Source: Candidatus Micrarchaeota archaeon (GTDB taxonomy: Archaea; Micrarchaeota; Micrarchaeia; Micrarchaeales; Micrarchaeaceae). Taken from it: a DNA stretch of 64,000 bases. The stretch is from the NCBI GenBank assembly GCA_021785805.1, contig JAJYEJ010000001.1, positions 1,940 through 65,939 on the forward strand, given 5' to 3'. The notes beneath the pieces were generated by a model. That model did not search any database. It was not told where the DNA came from and saw nothing but the letters and a program-made list of their open reading frames with translations. Made by a program: the position numbers and the translations under genes. This document shows, piece by piece, positions 4,996-64,000 of this stretch (positions are counted from its first letter, which is position 1; each line of letters starts with the position of its first letter).

Positions 4996-6054
4996 CTATT
5001 TCTCTATGTACTTCAGTATCCTGAGCCTGTCGGTCCGCTCATCGCTTATCTTGTAGTACTTGCCAAGCCATATCGTCCTGAGCTCATCCCTTTCCATCTC
5101 GGACCTCAGCACGAAAGAGAATATGAACTCCAGCGACATGACTATGCTTTCGAAGAGCTTCAGGTATTTCCTGTAGACCTCCCTCCTGAGCGCAGTGTCG
5201 AAGTACGACGCGAACTGGTCCTCCTTGTAGGCCTCGAACGCGTCGTCAATCCTGTACGGTATGTAGTTCTTCAGCGCATATATCTCCTTCGACGCCATTT
5301 CATTGAGCTTCTGCTCTGACAGCGTTCCCCCTTTGATAAGGTACGGGGAGACGTTAGTTACCTTCTCCCCTATAGCCTTAATCACGGTCATTATGTTCTT
5401 GATATCGATCGTCTCCTTTATGTATGAGAGAAGCAGGGCTTCGCTCCCGTTGGAGAACTTGAAGGTGTTTATCATATTATTATAATAGTACACGTCGAGC
5501 GCGGTTATCATGCCGGATATGTCATTGGTCTTCTTGTAGTCCTCGATGTGCTTGAGCATTATTGTGCCATAGCCATATTTGACAAGCAGGGAAACCACTC
5601 CGTCGACATCCTTCTGCGATATCATGTTTATGTACTCGCTCCTGCTCAGAACTCCGCTGAATGTCCCGACAGGTATGTTGCGCTCCACCATCAGGAAAGC
5701 TTCCGTGTGCTCGATGTCGTAGCCAAGCACTTTCGATGACAGTATCGTCTTTATGTTCTCTATGTCCCACTTGCTCAGGTAGGATGAGATGAACTGCTTC
5801 GCGGAGTTCGGAAGTGCGAACATCGCGCTCCTTATCATGCGCATCATGTGGGCGTTTATCACGACCTCCATCAGGTCGGGGATTCTGTAAAGGCTTGAGA
5901 ACGCGTCGATCTCCTTCCTGTAGCTCGTTGAGCTCAGCGACTTTAGGAACTCGTCGTCGCTCTTCTGCTGCAGCTCATCCATGAACGATGTGCTCAGGAA
6001 CTCGGGACGTAGCACTTTTAGTCTTCCATAAGTGCCAGTGTAGCCCGCATCCAT
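4996..6054 (-). CDS. atpC: A-type ATP synthase subunit C
   Basis: 352-aa helical protein at the conserved position between atpE and atpF. Size and repeat-like helical composition fit subunit C (the V-ATPase d homologue). Confidence 0.75.
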   Translation of the reverse strand: MDAGYTGTYGRLKVLRPEFLSTSFMDELQQKSDDEFLKSLSSTSYRKEIDAFSSLYRIPDLMEVVINAHMMRMIRSAMFALPNSAKQFISSYLSKWDIENIKTILSSKVLGYDIEHTEAFLMVERNIPVGTFSGVLSRSEYINMISQKDVDGVVSLLVKYGYGTIMLKHIEDYKKTNDISGMITALDVYYYNNMINTFKFSNGSEALLLSYIKETIDIKNIMTVIKAIGEKVTNVSPYLIKGGTLSEQKLNEMASKEIYALKNYIPYRIDDAFEAYKEDQFASYFDTALRREVYRKYLKLFESIVMSLEFIFSFVLRSEMERDELRTIWLGKYYKISDERTDRLRILKYIEK

Positions 6055-6056
6055 CT

Positions 6057-6638
6057 TTATCCCTTTTGAATCATCTTTAGTATCTGCACCGCTATGTCTT
6101 CCTTCACCATGGAGAAGAGGTTCTCCAGCGTGTAGTCTATTGAGAGCCTGCCGTCTTTAGAGACCGCCTTAAGCCCCCCGGAGAATTCCTCCTTTGACTC
6201 CTTTGGGTCTATACCCTTGGCTACCTTCAGCTTCGGAAGATCGCGCTTCTGCAGGTACAGCATGCAGTCGCTGCCAAGCTCATCGTAAGCGGCTTTGGCG
6301 AGCTTGTTCAGGAGACCGGGATAGTCTGCCCCTTTGGCATAGTCATTGAGCGACTCACGCACCTCGTCGAGCGTGCTGTTGATGGTGCTCTCGAGAGCCT
6401 CGCCGTATATCCTTCTTGCTTCTATGTTTGCTCTAGAAAGCTCCCTGGCGAGCAGCCTTGAGGAGTCTCCCTGTGCCTTCTGCTCCATGTGCCTGTTGTA
6501 AGCCTCCGCGCGCTTCTGCGCTTCCTCCGTCTCGCGCTTGGCGTTATTCTCGGCTTCCACGGCTATCTGGGACATCTTAGCCTTGGTGTCCCGCTCGATG
6601 TTAGCCAATATCTCTTCAAGTCCCATGCGAATCTGCAC
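6057..6638 (-). CDS. atpE: A-type ATP synthase subunit E
   Basis: 193 aa with a charged coiled-coil N-terminus (ILANIERDTKAKMSQIAVEAENNAKRETEEAQKRAE) and a globular C-terminus. Its position fits subunit E. Confidence 0.8.
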   Translation of the reverse strand: MQIRMGLEEILANIERDTKAKMSQIAVEAENNAKRETEEAQKRAEAYNRHMEQKAQGDSSRLLARELSRANIEARRIYGEALESTINSTLDEVRESLNDYAKGADYPGLLNKLAKAAYDELGSDCMLYLQKRDLPKLKVAKGIDPKESKEEFSGGLKAVSKDGRLSIDYTLENLFSMVKEDIAVQILKMIQKG

Positions 6639-37131: not shown

Positions 37132-37338
37132 CGACGGTAAAACGGTTCAAAACTCGCCTTATAATTACTCTGCTTTTCAGCTTTAAAACCCTTTCGGTAC
37201 ATGGTAGTTTTGGATATGGCAGGTGCCGTAAAAATACCGTGGGCTCTGCGCTTAGAAGAGCGCGAGTAGGCTATAAGCATAGACTTAACCTTATGTACCA
37301 CCTTATGTACCAACCGGAGAACGAGCGTGTGCATGAAA

Positions 37339-37413
37339 CGGGTCTGGAGGGATTTGAACCCTCGACCTACTGGTTAAGAGCCAGCCGCTCTGACCATGCT
37401 GAGCTACAGACCC
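37339..37413 (-). tRNA. tRNA-Lys (anticodon CUU)
   Basis: Hand-folded cloverleaf: acceptor GGGTCTG/CAGACCC, D arm GCTC..GAGC, anticodon stem GCTGG/CCAGT with loop CTCTTAA, T arm GAGGG-TTCAAAT-CCCTC. Confidence 0.9.
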
Positions 37414-37468
37414 ACACAGCACTATGCTTGCACATTAACATTTATTAAGTTTCTGAGACTTCGGTAAT

Positions 37469-38587
37469 TTAGAGAAACTCCTTGATTGCGTTAATCGCCT
37501 TCTCTGTGTTCTGCCTTCCACATGCCACAAGCAGCCGTCTTCTGCTCCCTATCATCCCTTCCAAGGTGGTTACCAGAGGCGAAAGCTCATAGAGCGTGCC
37601 TACCTTCGACCCGTCTTTCGCGACCACTTGCAGGTCATGGCCGCTGGGCTTGAACTCTATCATCCTTGCGATGAAGTCCTCCCTGCCTAGGCCTGCCTTT
37701 GAGAGCTTCCCTGCAACTTCCTCCATCTTGACGTCCTTTCCGATACCCGTATAGCATACCTTCTTGAAAAGTTTCCTTGAGACGATGTCAGATACCAGCG
37801 ATGCCGGTTTTCCTCCCCCACTGATGATTGCGCCTAACATCTGCTCGTCATTAAATGATTTCAATGCATCAGCCGGCACCCTTTTCTCTTCTATCGCTAT
37901 GTCGAGCGCATTCTCGTACATGCCACCAGCGATCAGTATCGTCTTGTGGTGGTATACCGAAGAGAACATGAAGTATCTTGCAAGGAGGAGGGTTTCCGCG
38001 CCAGTCAATCCGTCGCTGTACACGGCAAGCTTGCCGTTCGACAAAGTCAGCTTCAGCCGTATCCTTGGATAGTCTATTATGCCATAGGCGACCCCTGTGT
38101 AGTGTGCATCCCTGTTCAGGTAGTCTATCCTATCCGAGCCTATTACGCCGCTGACCAGAACTCCCTCGCCACGCCCTTTCATATATTCAATCATCTTCTG
38201 GTGTGACAATGTGGATCCCTGGATTACATCCTTGAGCGACGTGCTCGAAAGCATCTGTATGCCAAGCTCCTCGTGAGTTGTCTTGAGATGCTTCTTCAGA
38301 AGGTCGTCAGACTGGTGTGAGAAGGCGCCGTGGCCGACATCGTGCAGAAGACCTACGCATATGAGCTCTTCATCGTTCTTTCCCAGAACGCTTTCGGACA
38401 GCTCCCTTGTTATCTGCATTGTGCCCAGTGAGTGCTCGAAACGAGTATGGTTCGCGCCCGGATACACAAGGTCCGCTAGACCAAGTTGCTTTACCCTTCT
38501 AAGCCGCTGGAAATTAAGGTCATCAAGTATGGCTTTCTCCGTATCGTCGATCCGTATATCTGAATGGACAGGGTCTCTTATGTTCAT
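37469..38587 (-). CDS. HD-domain phosphohydrolase (dNTP triphosphohydrolase-like)
   Basis: NHTRFEHSLGT and LLHDVGHGAFSH motifs. ATG 38587 overlaps the stop of the upstream VKOR gene (ATGA). Confidence 0.8.
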   Translation of the reverse strand: MNIRDPVHSDIRIDDTEKAILDDLNFQRLRRVKQLGLADLVYPGANHTRFEHSLGTMQITRELSESVLGKNDEELICVGLLHDVGHGAFSHQSDDLLKKHLKTTHEELGIQMLSSTSLKDVIQGSTLSHQKMIEYMKGRGEGVLVSGVIGSDRIDYLNRDAHYTGVAYGIIDYPRIRLKLTLSNGKLAVYSDGLTGAETLLLARYFMFSSVYHHKTILIAGGMYENALDIAIEEKRVPADALKSFNDEQMLGAIISGGGKPASLVSDIVSRKLFKKVCYTGIGKDVKMEEVAGKLSKAGLGREDFIARMIEFKPSGHDLQVVAKDGSKVGTLYELSPLVTTLEGMIGSRRRLLVACGRQNTEKAINAIKEFL

Positions 38588-54547: not shown

Positions 54548-54883
54548 TTGTTTTACGACTTCGTCTGCCTTTCTAAACTAGACTGTTCTGGCGAAACCCT
54601 TGGGACATTGCCGCACGAGGCCGACAGGTTCGCCACTATTGTGGAAGACGAGCCGATAGGGAAGGCGCTTTTCAATGAGAGCCAGCTTGAGGCTACGCTT
54701 GCCGCGCTTGTCGCAGAGGTAGTGGAGATGAAGTCTCTAACCAATATGGACCTGGCCCAGATGAACTGGACGCCTTATGAGCAGATGACGCAGGTGGTGG
54801 AGCTGCCGGACGTCGAATCTCGCGTATATGCAAGAGCCGTTAAGGAGACCCGGTCTGCACATGGGCTCGGCATCTGCACATAG
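54548..54883 (+). CDS. hypothetical protein
   Basis: 111-aa acidic ORF ending 37 nt before attL. Weak support. Confidence 0.3.
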   Translation: MFYDFVCLSKLDCSGETLGTLPHEADRFATIVEDEPIGKALFNESQLEATLAALVAEVVEMKSLTNMDLAQMNWTPYEQMTQVVELPDVESRVYARAVKETRSAHGLGICT

Positions 54884-54919
54884 AAAGGAACAGTAATGAT
54901 TGGCTTTCCCATAAGCACA

Positions 54920-54954
54920 AGGCGGGCCCGGCGGGATTTGAACCCGCGACCTAC
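54920..54954. repeat. attL: orphan copy of the tRNA-Arg 3' segment
   Basis: aggcgggcccggcgggatttgaacccgcgacctac is identical to 59910-59944. No tRNA 5' half is adjacent. Confidence 0.9.
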
Positions 54955-55005
54955 TGAAGCACTAGAATTTACGCCGTAAATTCCCAAACTAGTAAAATCC
55001 TGCAT
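54920..55005 (-). pseudogene. Int(N): N-terminal fragment of the partitioned integrase
   Basis: The minus-strand ATG at 55005 (an alternative start is 55038) reads MQDFTSLGIYGVNSSAS, then VGRGFKSRRARL across attL, in the same frame used at attR. Beyond att the track ORF (54775-55038) runs on into chromosomal sequence. Confidence 0.65.
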
Positions 55006-55066
55006 TTTACGCACCCTCAATCGAACCCGACATTCCAAGCAGAATATGAAAACTGAACCTTAAATA

Positions 55067-55798
55067 TCAAGCGGGTTCAGTTTTGGTGGCCTGCTTCGTC
55101 TCATTTTGGTTTTTGAATTGTTGCCTGGCTTCTTTTGGAACTTTTGGCCAGTGGAGTTTTTCTAAAATGTGGCTCGCTTTCGCTTTAAAAATCGGATTCA
55201 AGTCAAAGTCTTGTTTTGTCGCCAAAATTCCTAGCGTCGTGCAGAAGAATACAACGATATTTGCCCCATGTTCTTTTAATAGGTCAAATACTACCTGCGT
55301 AGTGGCCCCACTAGTCGTTGCATTGTCAAAAACAAGAATATTTTTGCCTGTGAGCTCTCTAGTAACGTCTAAAGAGTCTTTAATGTTTAGAATCCTCTCT
55401 TCCTTTGTTTTAATCCCATGCTGCGCCGCTGTAGTCCGTATGCGTTTTATTGTGTTCGTATCTACAGGCACATGAGTTTTTTCGCCAAATGTTGTAGCGA
55501 GCGAAATCATATTTTGATTGATTGTGTCCTTTTCATGTTTCGGTATCACACAGATAAGGTCAAAACTTATGTCATCTTTGAATCGTTCAACATAGAGGTT
55601 ATAAAAACGATTTAAAAAATAGTCTGAATCATTTCCGTATTTGTAGAAGTACACCGCTCTTTTGGTGAAAGGATCATCTACTGTACTCTTTGGCACATGG
55701 TGCCCAAGTCCAAAAACAGGAACAACTTTGTTGCAGTGCTTACATTTTTGGCCTCTGTAGTACGAGTATTCGTATCCGGGTTCTATCTTGTTCATCAT
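55067..55798 (-). CDS. ComF-like phosphoribosyltransferase-fold protein with an N-terminal Cys/His cluster
   Basis: PRTase loop ILVFDNATTSGATT. The preceding RIRTTAAQHGIKTKEERILNIKDSLDV fits the ComF pattern (R....Q..l....R..N....F.v). The N-terminus has CKHCNK...GLGHH. Confidence 0.65.
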   Translation of the reverse strand: MMNKIEPGYEYSYYRGQKCKHCNKVVPVFGLGHHVPKSTVDDPFTKRAVYFYKYGNDSDYFLNRFYNLYVERFKDDISFDLICVIPKHEKDTINQNMISLATTFGEKTHVPVDTNTIKRIRTTAAQHGIKTKEERILNIKDSLDVTRELTGKNILVFDNATTSGATTQVVFDLLKEHGANIVVFFCTTLGILATKQDFDLNPIFKAKASHILEKLHWPKVPKEARQQFKNQNETKQATKTEPA

Positions 55799-55894
55799 CC
55801 CTACCTACTATACATCTTTTTTGGTCGCCCATCATCCTCGCCTATCGCCTTCTACTTAATGCTTAGGGGAACAAGTATTTAAAGATTTCCTTCT

Positions 55895-55925
55895 ACAATA
55901 TATTGTGTTTTATGCAATATATTGC
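55895..55925. promoter_or_regulatory. two 12-bp perfect palindromes in the divergent comF-like/dprA intergenic region
   Basis: acaatatattgt (55895-55906) and gcaatatattgc (55914-55925), 19 bp centre to centre. A tatttaaag TATA-like box lies at 55876-55884. Confidence 0.5.
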
Positions 55926-55964
55926 ATTCATGTGTTTAGGTGAATTTGGTGTTGGTGTTGGCTT

Positions 55965-56882
55965 GTGGGCGTAGCGTGGGAACTATCTGACGAAGAACTC
56001 GTTAAATGGCTTAAACTAACCGTTGTCAAAAGTGGCCTTGGCCCGGTTAGAATTCAGAAGCTTTTTACAACCTTTAAAAATCTAAGCGGCATTTACAACG
56101 CAACAAGAGCAGAGTTACTTGATAGCAGGATAGTTAACGAAAAGATAGTTGACAGTTTCGAAAAGCTAAAATCTGCGAATGATAGTAATTTTTACCAGCT
56201 AATCGAAACGTGCCGTGAAAATAACTTTAAGGTTTTTACCTATATAAATAAAGATTATCCGGAAAAGCTCAAAAATATCCCATCGCCGCCGCTGACCTTA
56301 TATCTTTCAGGCGACGAAAAAATAATCAGCAGTTTCCCATCAATTGGGATAGTAGGGACGCGTGAACCATCCAAACAGGCAAGAGATTTGGCCTACAGCT
56401 ATAGCAAATCGCTCAGTGATCGTAATATAACCGTAATTAGTGGAGGAGCAATAGGGATTGATACTGCTGCGCATTTTGGTGTTTTAGACTCTAAATATAA
56501 GAAAACAATATGTATTCTAGCATCTGGATTTTTACAGCCTTATCCGCCAGAAAACAAAGAACTTTTTAAAAATATAGTTGAAGCGGGGGGATTACTTATA
56601 AGTGAGAATTCACCAAATTTCCCTGGCACTAAAATATCATTAGTTCAAAGGAACAGAATAACTTCTGGTTTGGCTGACGCTATCTTCATAGTTGCTGCAA
56701 AGGGGACTGGAGGTGGGCTAGAGCAAGTCAAAATAGCAAGTAAACAGCGCAAACCAATCTTCTGCACAAAACTTAATCCTGACATAATACCGAATGAAGG
56801 AATAAAGATAGCCATAGAGCAATACAAAGCCATAGAAGTAGAAAATGTTGATCAGCTGGTAAACTACATACACTCTGACTGA
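55965..56882 (+). CDS. dprA: DNA processing protein DprA/Smf
   Basis: YPEKLKNIPSPPLTLYLSG, IGIVGTREPS, VISGGAIGIDTAAH, YPPENKELF, LLISE and LVQRNRITSGLADAIFIV follow the DprA Rossmann-domain consensus. GTG start with GGTG upstream. Confidence 0.85.
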   Translation: MGVAWELSDEELVKWLKLTVVKSGLGPVRIQKLFTTFKNLSGIYNATRAELLDSRIVNEKIVDSFEKLKSANDSNFYQLIETCRENNFKVFTYINKDYPEKLKNIPSPPLTLYLSGDEKIISSFPSIGIVGTREPSKQARDLAYSYSKSLSDRNITVISGGAIGIDTAAHFGVLDSKYKKTICILASGFLQPYPPENKELFKNIVEAGGLLISENSPNFPGTKISLVQRNRITSGLADAIFIVAAKGTGGGLEQVKIASKQRKPIFCTKLNPDIIPNEGIKIAIEQYKAIEVENVDQLVNYIHSD

Positions 56883-57118
56883 TGACTGCACAAAACCTCC
56901 GACGGAAGCCAAAAATGTCATATTTTTGTCGTCGAGGTTGTGCACACAAGGTAAACCACTGCGCAGCTGGCTGCACTGCACTTACTGCACTCAAACCTTG
57001 TTAGAAAAGCCGGTCTGACTGCAGTAAAACTCCGTCGAAGCCAAAAAATACCCGATTTTTGTCGACGGAGCACTGACAACAAGGGAAACGAATGCAGTTT
57101 CCGTGTGCAGTCAGTCAG
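56874..57118. repeat. duplicated ~75-nt hairpin modules, ACTGCA iterons and flanking inverted repeats (non-coding core of the element)
   Basis: Module A (56874-56951) and module B (57014-57085) align over their full length. Each contains a long hairpin (56894-56939; 57030-57070). ctgactgatgactgcaca (56875-56892) is inverted as tgtgcagtcagtcag (57104-57118). Confidence 0.7.
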
Positions 57119-57316
57119 TTCCTCGCCTGCTCCGCAGGCTCGTCCCGTCGCTTTTGCCCCGCCTGAAAGCGACCCAAGCTTCTTGATGAAACTTCTTTCC
57201 AAGAAATTTCCATGGGTGCCCTTAAACTGCTAGTTGGCTAGCTTAAACGAGCGTTGGCGAGAACGGAACCGCCCCTCACGTTGGTGAGGGCTGCGGTGGA
57301 GTAAAGGGCAGAGATT

Positions 57317-59071
57317 TTATGTTAAAATAGAGAGAAAAGCAGCAATTACGGTTCTTTTTCTTTCTGTTATGAATGTTGTAAAATCATCATTCAAAAGAGC
57401 ATCGAAGGCAGAAGACGATATAAGATGAGTCTCTAACCTATCACGCATTTGTCTTTCTGTGAGCCCAAATTCACGCATAATCTCATTAATGTATTGTGAT
57501 GGTTTCTTTGCTCGGATGTAATTTCTGTTTGTGTCAGCATCCAGCAGTGTCATATTAAGGATTGAATTGATTTGGTCATCAGATGCTCCGAACTCTCGCG
57601 CTCTGGACTCTGGGAAAATATGATGTGCATCTATTGTGTTAAATGTCGTTATTGTATTCTGCACAAAATCTCGACCGCCTTTTAAGGCTATTAGACATAG
57701 GATGCCTTTGTAGAGTGCATCGGATCCAGTAACTAATTGTTCTAAAGTAATCACGTTGGGATTCGCTAGATTCGCTTTAGCCTCTATAACAACTTGTGGG
57801 AGACTGCTGTTATCGGTAAACCATCTATTAACTGCGTTATAATCGATATATGTTTGTGTATCTGTTGAGCCTGCGTATGCATGTGTTATTATTGCCGACC
57901 AGTACCATTTTATAATCTTTTTGTTCATTTCAGCTCTTGCTCTTCCTTTTGCTTTGGAGAAAAGAGCCGCTAGTATCGGTAATGATTGCCTAAACGGAAC
58001 AAGATTTCTAGTTAGAACACCAAACCCGTCATTAACGCTACGGGTTTCTTTCAACATTTTGAGCATAGACTCAGTGTCTCCTACTGCTGCAGTCCAGTCA
58101 GTTTCAAATTTTCTTGAAGATAAATCAAGAAGTTCATCACTTTTAACGGGCTTGCCTCTTTTAAGAGCTAAAGTTTGAACAATGTACAATGGAAACCTAT
58201 CATTTCCTTCGCTAAATTCCTTTATCAGAGCATTGTTCCTAGCAGAAGTCTTCCATAATTCGCGAGGTTTTATATTATGTTTTATCATACGAGCGTTTAA
58301 CAAATCAAACGTCGTCAGATCAAGTCCCATAGTATTGAGTTTCTCAAATATTTTTGCAACATTACCTATGCTGATTTCGGAAGGTAGTTTTATTATGGGA
58401 ATTTCGAAATCTTTGAGCAGAAACTCAAGATGTTTCGAAACAGAATCAGAAAGCTTGTTTGCGTTTTCAGGAGTAGAATGTTCTACCGTCTTTAAAAATG
58501 CTTCGAAATCATAACACCATCGACTTACTGTTTCCAGTTCTTTGAGTGGGAATGTTCGTGTAGCAAATTGATTTTGTTTGTCATTAAGATTTTTTCTTGT
58601 TATCTCATCATCAGTATAAGAAACAACTAATTTTTCATCCTCTACCTTTGCTTTTCCATCGAGTTTTAACATTTCTTTAATGTCGATAAAGAACCTTATC
58701 GGTTTTTTCATGCCCCATAACGGTATGTTCGGAGCTTTTATAACATAATAAAGTGCCGATACTCTTTGCTGTCCATCTAAAATCAAATATCTTGGGTTTG
58801 TTGGCAATCGCGTTCCATATATTGGTCCGAAGGCCATATCAGTAGTTCTATCAATAGACCAGAATAACAAAGAACCAATATAGTAGCCTCGTAGCATTGA
58901 GACTAGAAGGTCAGTAACATTAGATCTTCGCCACTCAAATTCTCTTTGAAATTCAGGAATGCCCAAATCATCGTTTTCTATATAAGCCAGAATGTCTTTG
59001 ACTCTTTTTTTCTCGGGTTCTTCCAATCTCATTAATGTACTTGGTGTTATTCCTGGCATATAGACCGCCAC
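57317..59071 (-). CDS. DUF262/DUF1524 protein (GmrSD-like type IV restriction endonuclease family)
   Basis: The N-terminus has IPEFQREFEWR...ILDGQQRVSALYY (DUF262, ParB-like). The C-terminus has DAHHIFPES...LLDADTNR (DUF1524, His-Me finger). An alternative ATG start is 59059. Confidence 0.8.
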   Translation of the reverse strand: MAVYMPGITPSTLMRLEEPEKKRVKDILAYIENDDLGIPEFQREFEWRRSNVTDLLVSMLRGYYIGSLLFWSIDRTTDMAFGPIYGTRLPTNPRYLILDGQQRVSALYYVIKAPNIPLWGMKKPIRFFIDIKEMLKLDGKAKVEDEKLVVSYTDDEITRKNLNDKQNQFATRTFPLKELETVSRWCYDFEAFLKTVEHSTPENANKLSDSVSKHLEFLLKDFEIPIIKLPSEISIGNVAKIFEKLNTMGLDLTTFDLLNARMIKHNIKPRELWKTSARNNALIKEFSEGNDRFPLYIVQTLALKRGKPVKSDELLDLSSRKFETDWTAAVGDTESMLKMLKETRSVNDGFGVLTRNLVPFRQSLPILAALFSKAKGRARAEMNKKIIKWYWSAIITHAYAGSTDTQTYIDYNAVNRWFTDNSSLPQVVIEAKANLANPNVITLEQLVTGSDALYKGILCLIALKGGRDFVQNTITTFNTIDAHHIFPESRAREFGASDDQINSILNMTLLDADTNRNYIRAKKPSQYINEIMREFGLTERQMRDRLETHLISSSAFDALLNDDFTTFITERKRTVIAAFLSILT

Positions 59072-59095
59072 ATTTGGATAAAAATTGTGTTTTGG

Positions 59096-59909
59096 CTATT
59101 TATATGTTTCTCTAAAGTTGTTATTTGTGAATACAAATTCGATTGACCGATATAAATCCTCTTTGTCTTTAGCGATATATCGCATCGTAGTTTCCGGTTT
59201 GCAATGTCTCGCGAATCTACTCGTCAGAACTACATTACCATTCGTCGATTTAGCAAATTTAGTAACCGCATAGTGGCGCAGACTATGTGTCGTTAATCTA
59301 TGTAAAGCACGTTCTTTCTTATTCGGATAACTTTCTTCTGAATAGCCGTATATTGCATTGAGTCCAGCCTTCTGTACCGTTTCTCTGAATACCTTTCTAA
59401 CATAGTTCTGTTCTATGTACTGCTGTCTGTTGTGGTTATTGTCGTTCTCTTTGAAGAAGATATGTCCATCCGCTGCCTTTATCCCATCAGTATTCTTGTT
59501 GATAAACTCTATCGTATCTCTAAAGAGATCCACAGGTATCAACAAAGAATCCAATTTTCTTGACTTTTCGCTCATTATCGTCAGTTCCCTCTTCTCGAAG
59601 TCGATGTTGCTTACGTGCAACTTTGTGGCTTCTCCGATTCTGAGGCCCAGAAACGCCTGGAACTTGAAAAGAAGCCTGAACTTGTCGTTCTTCACGTTTC
59701 TGAGGAAATGCTGCAGCTCCATTTCCGTAAAACCCTTGTTTATGGTTCCATACTTTGTCTCTCTCGGCCTCCTGAACCTTCTTTCATAATTTTCTCTCAA
59801 GGTCTTTCTCAGCTGCTCAATCTGCCCTTTCGAGAACTGCCTGCTTGATGCGTCTACTTGCTCTAAAACCCTTCCGAAATCGAACCCGACATTCCCTCTC
59901 TTAAGCTTT
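59096..59909 (-). CDS. Int(C): catalytic portion of the SSV-type tyrosine integrase
   Basis: Catalytic residues lie in LRIGEA (R), HSLRH (HxxR), ARH and MRY (Tyr). The frame is open upstream of the track start (TTG 59800), through attR, to a stop at 59984-59986. Confidence 0.8.
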
Positions 59910-59944
59910 AGGCGGGCCCGGCGGGATTTGAACCCGCGACCTAC
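59910..59944. repeat. attR: att copy forming the 3' part of tRNA-Arg
   Basis: Identical to 54920-54954. Confidence 0.9.
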
Positions 59945-60025
59945 AGCTTTCTCCTTCTTTTGATTAAACCTTTTTCAAAAGTTCATTAGAAGGCTGCCGC
60001 TCTATCCAAGCTGAGCTACGAGCCC
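59911..60025 (-). tRNA. tRNA-Arg (anticodon UCU) with a 38-nt intron at the canonical 37/38 position
   Basis: Hand-folded: acceptor GGGCTCG/CGGGCCC, D arm GCTC..GAGC, anticodon stem GCAGC/GCTGT with loop CTTCTAA, T arm GCGGG-TTCAAAT-CCCGC. The intron segment AGAAGG pairs with CCTTCT around the anticodon, as expected for a bulge-helix-bulge substrate. Confidence 0.85.
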
Positions 60026-63831: not shown

Positions 63832-64000
63832 ACTCCAGTCGATGCTGCTGGAGGACACTGCTATCAGATTTCGACAGCCATGCAAGTCAGCTCAACGGCT
63901 TCGTTGGGCGGCGTACGGCTCAGTAACACGTAGTCAATCTACCGTAGAGAGGCGGATAACCTCGGGAAACTGAGGCTAATACACCATAAGCTAGAGCATC
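63832..64000 (+). rRNA. 16S rRNA, 5' end (partial, continues beyond window)
   Basis: actccagtcgatgctgctggaggacactgctatcag...agccatgcaagtc...ggctcagtaacacgt...ggataacctcgggaaactgaggctaatac aligns with the conserved archaeal 16S 5' domain. Confidence 0.9.

Follow-up and report, generated by a model that had tools for sequence, protein, structure and literature searches.

Integration into transfer RNA (tRNA) genes by an integrase that cuts its own gene in two is known from the fuselloviruses SSV1 and SSV2 and from the integrative satellite pSSVi of Sulfolobales. In these systems, a tyrosine recombinase acts on an attachment site (attP) that lies inside the open reading frame (ORF) of its own gene, int; integration into the 3' part of a tRNA gene partitions int into Int(N) and Int(C) and restores the tRNA. 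According to a 2021 review (PMC8371274), all the integrases of this 'suicidal' kind (SSV, pTN3, pT26-2) are a peculiarity of archaea, belong to PF16795, have a single origin and are tied to (hyper)thermophiles. Published exceptions comprise five proteins of Methanosarcinales (PMC7253208) and a single thaumarchaeal element (PMC6563490). The pT26-2/pTN3/TKV-type elements of Thermococcales, Archaeoglobales and Methanosarcinales (PMC7253208, PMC8371274) have many related split integrases per lineage and many different tRNA targets, and their re-excision is thought to rely on a complete integrase in trans. The cryptic integrated elements of Thaumarchaeota (Krupovic et al. 2019, PMC6563490) consist of an integrase, which is their sole conserved gene, flanking attachment (att) sites and restriction-modification and other accessory cargo, with no hallmarks of viruses or conjugation; one of them, NitEve-E3, has a split SSV1-like integrase. 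Bacterial tRNA-targeting islands (tycheposons, the integrase-only 'minimal hitcher' genomic islands, P4-like defence hotspots) combine one tyrosine integrase with swappable defence or adaptation cargo at population-level hotspots. The subject of the present analysis is a 64,000-nt stretch of a Micrarchaeota (DPANN) contig, hereafter the window. We propose, with a probability of about 0.85, that it holds a 4,990-bp cryptic element of Micrarchaeota, site-specifically inserted in the 3' part of a tRNA-Arg(TCT) gene, where it splits its own integrase gene.

This element resembles the four groups in the respects just listed and differs from each of them in others. Relative to the SSV systems, it has no viral genes, carries a conserved RNA-like module and resides in a mesophilic or acidophilic DPANN archaeon. 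The pT26-2/pTN3/TKV-type integrases belong to PF16795 and have a single origin (PMC8371274), whereas the Micrarchaeota family matches PF00589 only and is XerA-like; the Micrarchaeota elements are also far shorter (3-9 kb) and do without the plasmid core genes. The Thaumarchaeota elements come from another phylum and use another integrase family. Moreover, the split is a single case there and the rule for the whole family in Micrarchaeota, whose elements have a second backbone part in the RNA-like module. The integrase genes of the bacterial islands, in contrast, remain intact on integration, and to our knowledge no equivalent conserved RNA module is known in them. The mode of integration itself is not new; what is new is type I ('suicidal') integration by an unrelated Xer-like integrase family in DPANN archaea. 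The literature searched contained no description of this integrase or element family, and one may exist elsewhere.

Insertion at tRNA-Arg(TCT) and the integrase gene

The element is bounded by two exact copies of a 35-nt repeat (AGGCGGGCCCGGCGGGATTTGAACCCGCGACCTAC), attL at 54920-54954 and attR at 59910-59944, spaced 4,990 nt apart; a simple calculation gives a chance expectation of about 1e-12 for a 35-nt repeat within 64 kb. The right copy is the 3' part of a functional tRNA-Arg gene on the minus strand (59913-60025; Rfam RF00005, 55.9 bits), with anticodon TCT and an intron of about 40 nt, and extends from the 3' strand of the anticodon stem to 3 nt beyond the discriminator. This tRNA, the intact target of the integration, was missed by ARAGORN in default mode; with the intron option, the same program calls the same tRNA-Arg gene in two related contigs (L009 and L011). 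The left copy is a 3' fragment of tRNA-Arg without an adjoining 5' half: ARAGORN and Rfam call no tRNA there, the fragment yields only a sub-threshold tmRNA-like match (19.5 bits), and it is not part of a second tRNA. The GC content of the interior is 0.34-0.41 (overall 0.40), against 0.50-0.55 (0.51) in the flanks. Pfam, PADLOC and NCBIfam scans of all the element ORFs found no rep, capsid, conjugation or transposon hallmark gene; having an integrase, att flanks and no hallmarks of viruses, conjugation or transposons, it is a cryptic integrated element in the sense of PMC6563490. A first-pass annotation of the window had already described the identical repeats, the intron-containing minus-strand tRNA-Arg, the left copy without a 5' half, the AT-richer interior and the absence of rep, capsid and conjugation genes, and had read them as a small element integrated in tRNA-Arg. 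All of this is borne out, as is its proposal that an empty site should be sought in related assemblies.

The site was surveyed by an exact-sequence look-up of a 111-aa protein encoded in the left flank, which retrieved nine contigs. The site is empty in two independent assemblies, L001 (ENA ERZ27237319) and L004 (GCA_021827825.1), where the left flank is followed by a single att, the tRNA 5' half and then EamA and TatD genes; 708 of 711 positions are identical to the empty site predicted from the window. Empty and occupied alleles thus coexist, with flanks that are about 99.6% identical. The occupied site of the window recurs at 99.8-100% identity in two other, independent assemblies (L010 and L011). 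L009 shares both flanks and att with the window, but its att pair is spaced 6,229 nt apart and encloses a related integrase gene (87% nucleotide identity) and a wholly different cargo of HATPase_c_3 and AAA_16 proteins, while L003 has the same left end as the window followed by a third version of the cargo. One site therefore holds three different cargo versions, and only int, the RNA module and the left end (54955-55086, kept in L009 and L003) are common to all three. Four further contigs stop inside att or at its edge, as is expected where a population is heterogeneous. The empty sites and the other cargo variants at the same site indicate a real and recently mobile 4,990-bp insertion.

The recombinase body, Int(C), is encoded on the minus strand (59096-59909; PF00589, 1.3e-13) in a frame that stays open through attR, and the first in-frame ATG, GTG or TTG is the TTG at 59800 (codon 66). 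At the opposite end, Int(N) (54955-55005, minus strand) is made up of the ATG at 55005 and 17 codons (MQDFTSLGIYGVNSSAS) that enter attL in the same frame, and a Shine-Dalgarno-like GAGGGTG (55012-55018, minus strand) lies 6 nt upstream of the ATG. When 54955 and 59909 are connected across a single att, the result is one continuous ORF of 299 aa; the first-pass annotation, which had noticed both open frames, had expected about 300 aa. The Int(N) segment of the sister element in L009 has diverged yet keeps the frame (MDHFTELGIYGVNSSAS), and the integrase is under strong purifying selection (dN/dS 0.044, dS 1.31, window versus L009). In an AlphaFold model, residues 1-37 are disordered and the fold begins near residue 40, so the split takes expression signals away from the gene, not a protein domain. 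A start at the TTG of codon 66 would cost the conserved first helix and part of the second. Since the integrated state has no start codon between the upstream stop and codon 66, the gene is not left intact as in type II (pNOB8-type) integration; attP inside the int ORF, the repeat of the tRNA 3' part and the restored tRNA are those of type I. As a separate observation, the Int(N) frame of the integrated state (54775-55038, minus strand) continues through attL for 47 further codons into host DNA, where it runs antisense to the last part (3' end) of the gene for the 111-aa host protein; the fused peptide made from it would be junk.

The following mechanism may be proposed. In the circular form, attP would be a 35-nt copy of the tRNA 3' end within codons 18-29 of the integrase gene, and the junction is predicted to read ...CTCTCTTAAGCTTT + att + TGAAGCACTAGAA... 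or, in a longer form, CCGAAATCGAACCCGACATTCCCTCTCTTAAGCTTT-AGGCGGGCCCGGCGGGATTTGAACCCGCGACCTAC-TGAAGCACTAGAATTTACGCCG. Recombination with the tRNA gene would place the promoter, the ribosome-binding site, the ATG and 17 codons at the left end as Int(N), and the whole folded enzyme would stay at the right end as Int(C), without a start codon; the tRNA would be rebuilt intact. Deprived of promoter, ribosome-binding site and start codon, the integrase would be switched off by integration. Re-excision would then need a complete integrase provided in trans by a related element, which seems the likely route because 17 of 57 genomes hold 2-3 copies (among the best 80 loci described below).

Just outside the att core, the 13 nt at 54907-54919 and at 59897-59909 agree at 8 positions (TCnCnTAAGC...). 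This likeness may reflect an integrase recognition that reaches beyond the tRNA end, or chance.

Affinities and distribution of the integrase

The partition of int had been taken in the first-pass annotation as the hallmark of SSV-type integrases. This stands for the architecture of the gene and falls for the protein family. The protein is a tyrosine recombinase with the R-K-H-x-x-R-H-Y catalytic domain, and the columns of R119, K144, H237, R240, H264 and Y273 are invariant in the homologue alignment A1. In Pfam, the window integrase and 25 relatives match PF00589 only: the SSV-type families PF16795 and PF07935 gave no match to the window integrase even at E<=10, nor to the 26 family members at E<=1, while SSV1 Int, the positive control, matches them at 1.5e-61 and 2.6e-34, respectively. 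A comparison of the family profile with SSV1 Int by hhalign reached a probability of 0.3%, and no SSV1 Int entry is found among the top 50 Foldseek matches. By sequence, the PDB entries that match the protein best are those of archaeal XerA; by structure, they are XerA, a Staphylococcus aureus integrase, IntI4, XerH and the Tn1549 integrase. In NCBIfam, too, archaeal XerA is the top-scoring model, with a score far short of the cut-off. A tblastn search of phage and archaeal-virus genomes found no archaeal virus, only weak matches to bacterial phage integrases. Membership in the SSV family, which the first-pass annotation had proposed to examine with the rebuilt integrase, is excluded by these Pfam, hhalign, PDB sequence, fold and tblastn searches. 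The gene has the architecture of the SSV type, but the protein lies outside the SSV family and its nearest relatives are Xer-like. The position of the cut differs as well, as the annotated integration site of SSV1 falls at about codons 64-78, whereas Int(N) in the window amounts to 17 codons of a predicted disordered tail. The same architecture in a large family of unrelated, Xer-like sequence points to convergence or to a much wider distribution of this design.

The reconstituted protein has 590 homologues in the protein database and matches 237 stretches in Genome Taxonomy Database (GTDB) genomes. These stretches are nearly all from Micrarchaeota metagenome-assembled genomes, many of them from acid-mine sediments, and the host in the window is likewise a Micrarchaeota archaeon, with an SRP54 79% identical to that of a named member of the Micrarchaeales. 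The predicted N-termini of the homologues hold translated strings of the tRNA T-arm (GFKSR, GFESR, GSNP, VRIP) in varying frames; one homologue, P0127 (291 aa), was considered as a reconstituted integrase and rejected as a tRNA read-through rather than a rebuilt gene. Family counts were made on the best 80 genomic loci of integrase relatives and on 24 elements of 3-9 kb with att pairs, the window and L009 included. Upstream sequence sufficed at 76 loci; in 57 of them, a tRNA on the same strand immediately precedes the integrase body, and these tRNAs represent at least 24 isoacceptors. A direct repeat is present upstream of the integrase body and again 3-9 kb downstream in 23 of the 80 loci, and the att pairs of the 24 elements fall in at least 11 tRNA species. 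When the distal end is joined to the proximal att, an in-frame ATG upstream of att is restored in 20 of the 24 elements, compared with 3/24 after a 1-nt and 3/24 after a 2-nt deletion at the junction and 4/24 on the host side. The split-gene design is a trait of the family, not a coincidence. Most of the predicted Int(N) start codons are preceded at 5-9 nt by a Shine-Dalgarno-like (R)GGTG, most of the 24 elements are AT-richer than their own flanks, and the integrase is the only gene common to all of them.

One of the loci (L076, 15382-15497) has two att-like copies 90 nt apart at its distal end, and its rebuilt N-terminus repeats the peptide SSNLSGP, which suggests a tandem duplication of att.

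T-loop-like boxes and the RNA-like module

Two further features of the element are conserved outside the integrase body. The first is a set of short boxes that resemble the tRNA T-loop. An exact 18-nt direct repeat is present near both ends on the minus strand: copy 1 (55019-55036; GGAATGTCGGGTTCGATT) contains a GTTCGAT box (55020-55026), which precedes the Int(N) ATG by 21 nt, and copy 2 (59878-59895) contains the same box (59879-59885) 24 nt beyond att, in a segment that encodes the conserved G-N-V-G-F-D. The two copies would flank att in the circular form, and no interior control repeat reached this length (0/50). Next to copy 1, an 11-bp hairpin (55049-55084, minus strand) covers the stop codon of a phosphoribosyltransferase (PRTase) gene; a GTTCAGT box (55052-55058), at position -53 relative to the Int(N) ATG, lies in its 3' arm, and the loop holds a TATA-like sequence (ATATTTAA). 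In the family, 19 of 21 elements have a GTTCRRW box in the 90 nt that precede the Int(N) ATG, where 0.03 would be expected per search window, and in 13 of these the box falls at -51 to -55. Inside att, the tRNA T-loop has this motif in 18 of the 21 elements, and the motif is found again 24-26 nt beyond att in about nine. These fixed-position T-loop-like boxes around attP are a new feature. As judged from their conservation, they are putative extra integrase-binding or operator sites, in which case attP would have three T-loop-like boxes against one in the chromosomal target (attB).

The second feature is a structured non-coding module on the minus strand (56883-57311), composed of a core (57118-57311) and two hairpin-plus-TTTT units that extend down to 56883. 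This 430-nt stretch has 86-87% nucleotide identity to segments in L009, L042 and L040, while the integrases of L042 and L040 are only about 58% identical to the window integrase as proteins; the module is therefore better conserved than the integrase itself. Its first 100 nt or so are identical in five elements, and diverged copies were recovered by a profile search. A covariance model places the module in 34 of 87 integrase loci and in 18 of the 24 complete elements, always inside the element (among others L009:4108-4500, L042:10100-10772, L040:1496-2009 and L078:9992-10194), and 2-5 hairpin-plus-TTTT units follow the core. In the covariance-model alignment, 94.9% of the cells pair and 13 of 15 pairs have changes on both sides, counts that lean towards structure because the alignment was fitted to the model. 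This alignment has a covariation score of 0.472, compared with no more than 0.099 in slid controls, and an independent RNAalifold run found compensatory changes in 16 of 17 pairs. The DNA-fold z-score of the module is -6.3. One helix position is U-G in 17 sequences and U-A in 11, and the T-runs after the downstream hairpins occur on one strand only, which favours an RNA read from the minus strand of the window. The module usually takes one of two positions: it either closely follows the 3' end of int, in antisense orientation, or precedes the distal att by 260-500 nt in sense orientation, a place that comes to lie shortly before int in the circle. No Rfam family matches 56883-57311 at E<=1 or at gathering thresholds. 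We thus regard it as a previously undescribed structured RNA-like module, without an Rfam family and common to this family of elements. A 94-aa ORF within the module was rejected as a gene, since L009 has an indel of about 34 nt there and the conservation is at the nucleotide level.

Its role can only be addressed tentatively. The module might serve the maintenance of the excised circle, as an origin, a primer or a regulator, a role that is favoured because the elements are without any rep gene. It was also considered as a guide for target choice, and this was rejected: matches between RNA and attP have about the same mean length in cognate (7.7 nt) and in non-cognate (7.5 nt) pairs, and the module has no complementarity to its cognate att. 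The module and the boxes offer handles on the architecture of attP, the autoregulation of the integrase and maintenance without a Rep protein. The backbone that the element has in common with its relatives consists of the integrase, the Int(N) end with its GTTCRRW boxes and the RNA-like module, the rest being exchangeable cargo.

A more far-reaching interpretation is possible, and we put it forward as speculative. These integrases could represent a separately evolved self-splitting lineage whose backbone pairs the integrase with a structured RNA for a circle devoid of Rep, the three boxes forming an attP intasome that mimics a tRNA. The RNA and its hairpin array would then be needed for RNA-primed replication by host enzymes or for the control of integrase expression or activity, and the tRNA-mimicking intasome would explain easy retargeting among at least 24 tRNA isoacceptors.

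A first scan of the JGI metagenomes for the module was empty, and a second returned two contigs, one of which has the usual layout of tRNA, integrase and RNA. The JGI contig L098 (Ga0181527_1036858) has the RNA-module motif and a tRNA-Ala about 1 kb apart (1070-1094 and 2160-2231). No integrase was detected between them, and the contig may represent a decayed element.

Cargo and competing explanations

Three cargo genes lie between the left end and the integrase. The first (55067-55798, minus strand) encodes a ShosT-like PRTase, a putative toxin, with PADLOC matches to ShosT (2e-10) and PsyrT (2.9e-13) and a weak Pfam Pribosyltran match. The second (55965-56882, plus strand) encodes a ShosA-like protein of the DprA family, a putative antitoxin, with a nearly full-length PADLOC match to ShosA (4.9e-56) and a match to PF02481 (1.8e-54). 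The two genes are adjacent and divergent, 166 nt apart. The third (57317-59071, minus strand) encodes a 584-aa GmrSD-like nuclease (DUF262 plus DUF1524-like), reminiscent of type IV restriction enzymes. Its N-terminal PF03235 match is clear (6.6e-31), its C-terminal PF07510 match is weak (18.2 bits, cut-off 23), a DAHHIFP motif of the His-Me type is visible in the translation, and PADLOC HEC-05 matches it over its full length (4.2e-23). ShosTA is a characterised defence system with a PRTase toxin and a DprA-like antitoxin (PMC11961720, PMC12961424). The window pair shares with it the adjacency of a DprA-like protein and a PRTase; it differs in that the genes are divergently oriented and the ShosT match is confined to the PRTase core. 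The third protein has the layout of GmrSD, a DUF262 N-terminal domain and a His-Me C-terminal nuclease domain, although its GmrSD_C domain is under the Pfam cut-off. Unlike ShosTA and GmrSD, these genes belong to an archaeal context, and the functions given to them are putative. On this basis, the cargo of the window is two putative defence modules, a ShosTA-like PRTase/DprA pair and a GmrSD-like nuclease.

Another explanation is that the DprA and ComF-like proteins are true competence (DNA-uptake) proteins that help the DPANN cell, not a defence pair. The strong PF02481 match would fit this, the DprA protein falls not far short of the NCBIfam DprA model (TIGR00732, 172 bits against a cut-off of 191.15), and the NCBIfam models that fit the PRTase best are named GntX and ComF. 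Nevertheless, both proteins stay below the NCBIfam cut-offs (the PRTase with 33.3 bits against 233.55 for ComF, TIGR00201), the ShosA match is near full length and its partner matches both ShosT and PsyrT. Moreover, the pair sits on a mobile element beside another defence gene, and its sister elements carry restriction-modification and abortive-infection cargo. A competence role therefore appears unlikely, and the cargo, which had seemed unusual in the first-pass annotation, is ordinary for a small island.

In the other 23 elements, which have 86 cargo ORFs, no cargo gene is common to all, and neither a common cargo gene nor a common rep gene exists among the 24. The 86 ORFs are rich in genes for type II and IIG restriction-modification systems, AIPR and AAA_15 proteins, HNH and T5orf172 nucleases and regulators, and also encode a P-type ATPase and a cation-efflux protein. 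The elements thus show a movement of defence genes (restriction-modification, abortive infection, toxin-antitoxin) and metal-resistance genes among ultra-small symbionts. In the sister element of L009, a tRNA-Leu(TAA)-like sequence (5996-6080) located about 250 nt before the distal att may represent either a tRNA carried as cargo or what is left of another element's att.

The elements might also be virus satellites or defective proviruses, packaged by a helper virus through the conserved RNA and hairpin module. This would be compatible with the self-splitting cryptic element proposed here, and their 3-9 kb size, the lack of rep and capsid genes, the conserved non-coding module and the defence cargo agree with it; we take these features to be comparable to those of pSSVi/pSSVx or P4. 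Yet the RNA-module motifs have no exact match in IMG/VR viral contigs, the tblastn search with the integrase found no archaeal virus, and a survey published in 2026 detected no proviruses among 1,356 genomes of Micrarchaeota (PMC13573593). We consider a satellite nature to have a low probability. Given that survey, the 3-9 kb elements are a mobilome that virus-finding pipelines miss.

Several observations weigh against a mobile, self-splitting cryptic element or limit parts of this reading. No circular junction or episomal contig was found among the assembled contigs examined, so that the excised form is deduced from the empty site alone. The look-up, which followed the proposal of the first-pass annotation to seek the attP junction in related assemblies, covered the window Int(C), its 90% cluster and four long homologues, and its contigs were integrated or uninformative linear ones. 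The element has no replication, packaging or transfer gene that would account for its movement from cell to cell. Int(N) is a short peptide with little conservation, and its requirement for activity is putative. The box about 24 nt beyond att overlaps the conserved G-F-D codons, and its conservation could be driven by the protein. Finally, the roles given to the boxes and the RNA-like module come from conservation.

The want of a circular form, together with the inactivation of the integrase gene by integration, would also suit a fossil island, that is, an ancient, fixed and immobile insertion with decaying integrase fragments. This is improbable, because empty and occupied alleles coexist between nearly identical flanks, one site holds three cargo versions, Int(C) is intact and under purifying selection, and the att copies are still identical. 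Least probable of all is a classical pNOB8-type integrase that remains intact, with att just upstream of the gene and an in-frame Int(N) by coincidence: the mere 17 codons of Int(N), the predicted disorder of residues 1-37 and the poorly conserved N-termini of the homologues would allow it, but the first start in the integrated state would remove conserved helix sequence, the in-frame ATG is restored far more often than in the frame controls, Shine-Dalgarno-like motifs precede the restored ATGs, and the frame is kept in the diverged Int(N) of L009.

A few minor observations complete the analysis. Two ENA k141 contigs of 4.0-4.2 kb (L094 and L095) encode an integrase relative (P0035) whose ATG is overlapped by a tRNA 3' fragment, GGTTCAAATCCCGTCATGCCCG. 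An inverted copy of the fragment also precedes P0035 and no full tRNA is present, a context that could be episomal. In the window, a second element at a tRNA-Lys (37338-37414) was considered and rejected, as that tRNA has no repeat and no GC dip; an integrase-like tblastn match nearby (37565-37684, plus strand, E=0.065) is on the wrong side and strand of the tRNA-Lys and was judged to be due to chance. About 4 kb from the element, the edge of the window holds the 5' end of a 16S rRNA gene of archaeal type (63832-64000, plus strand).

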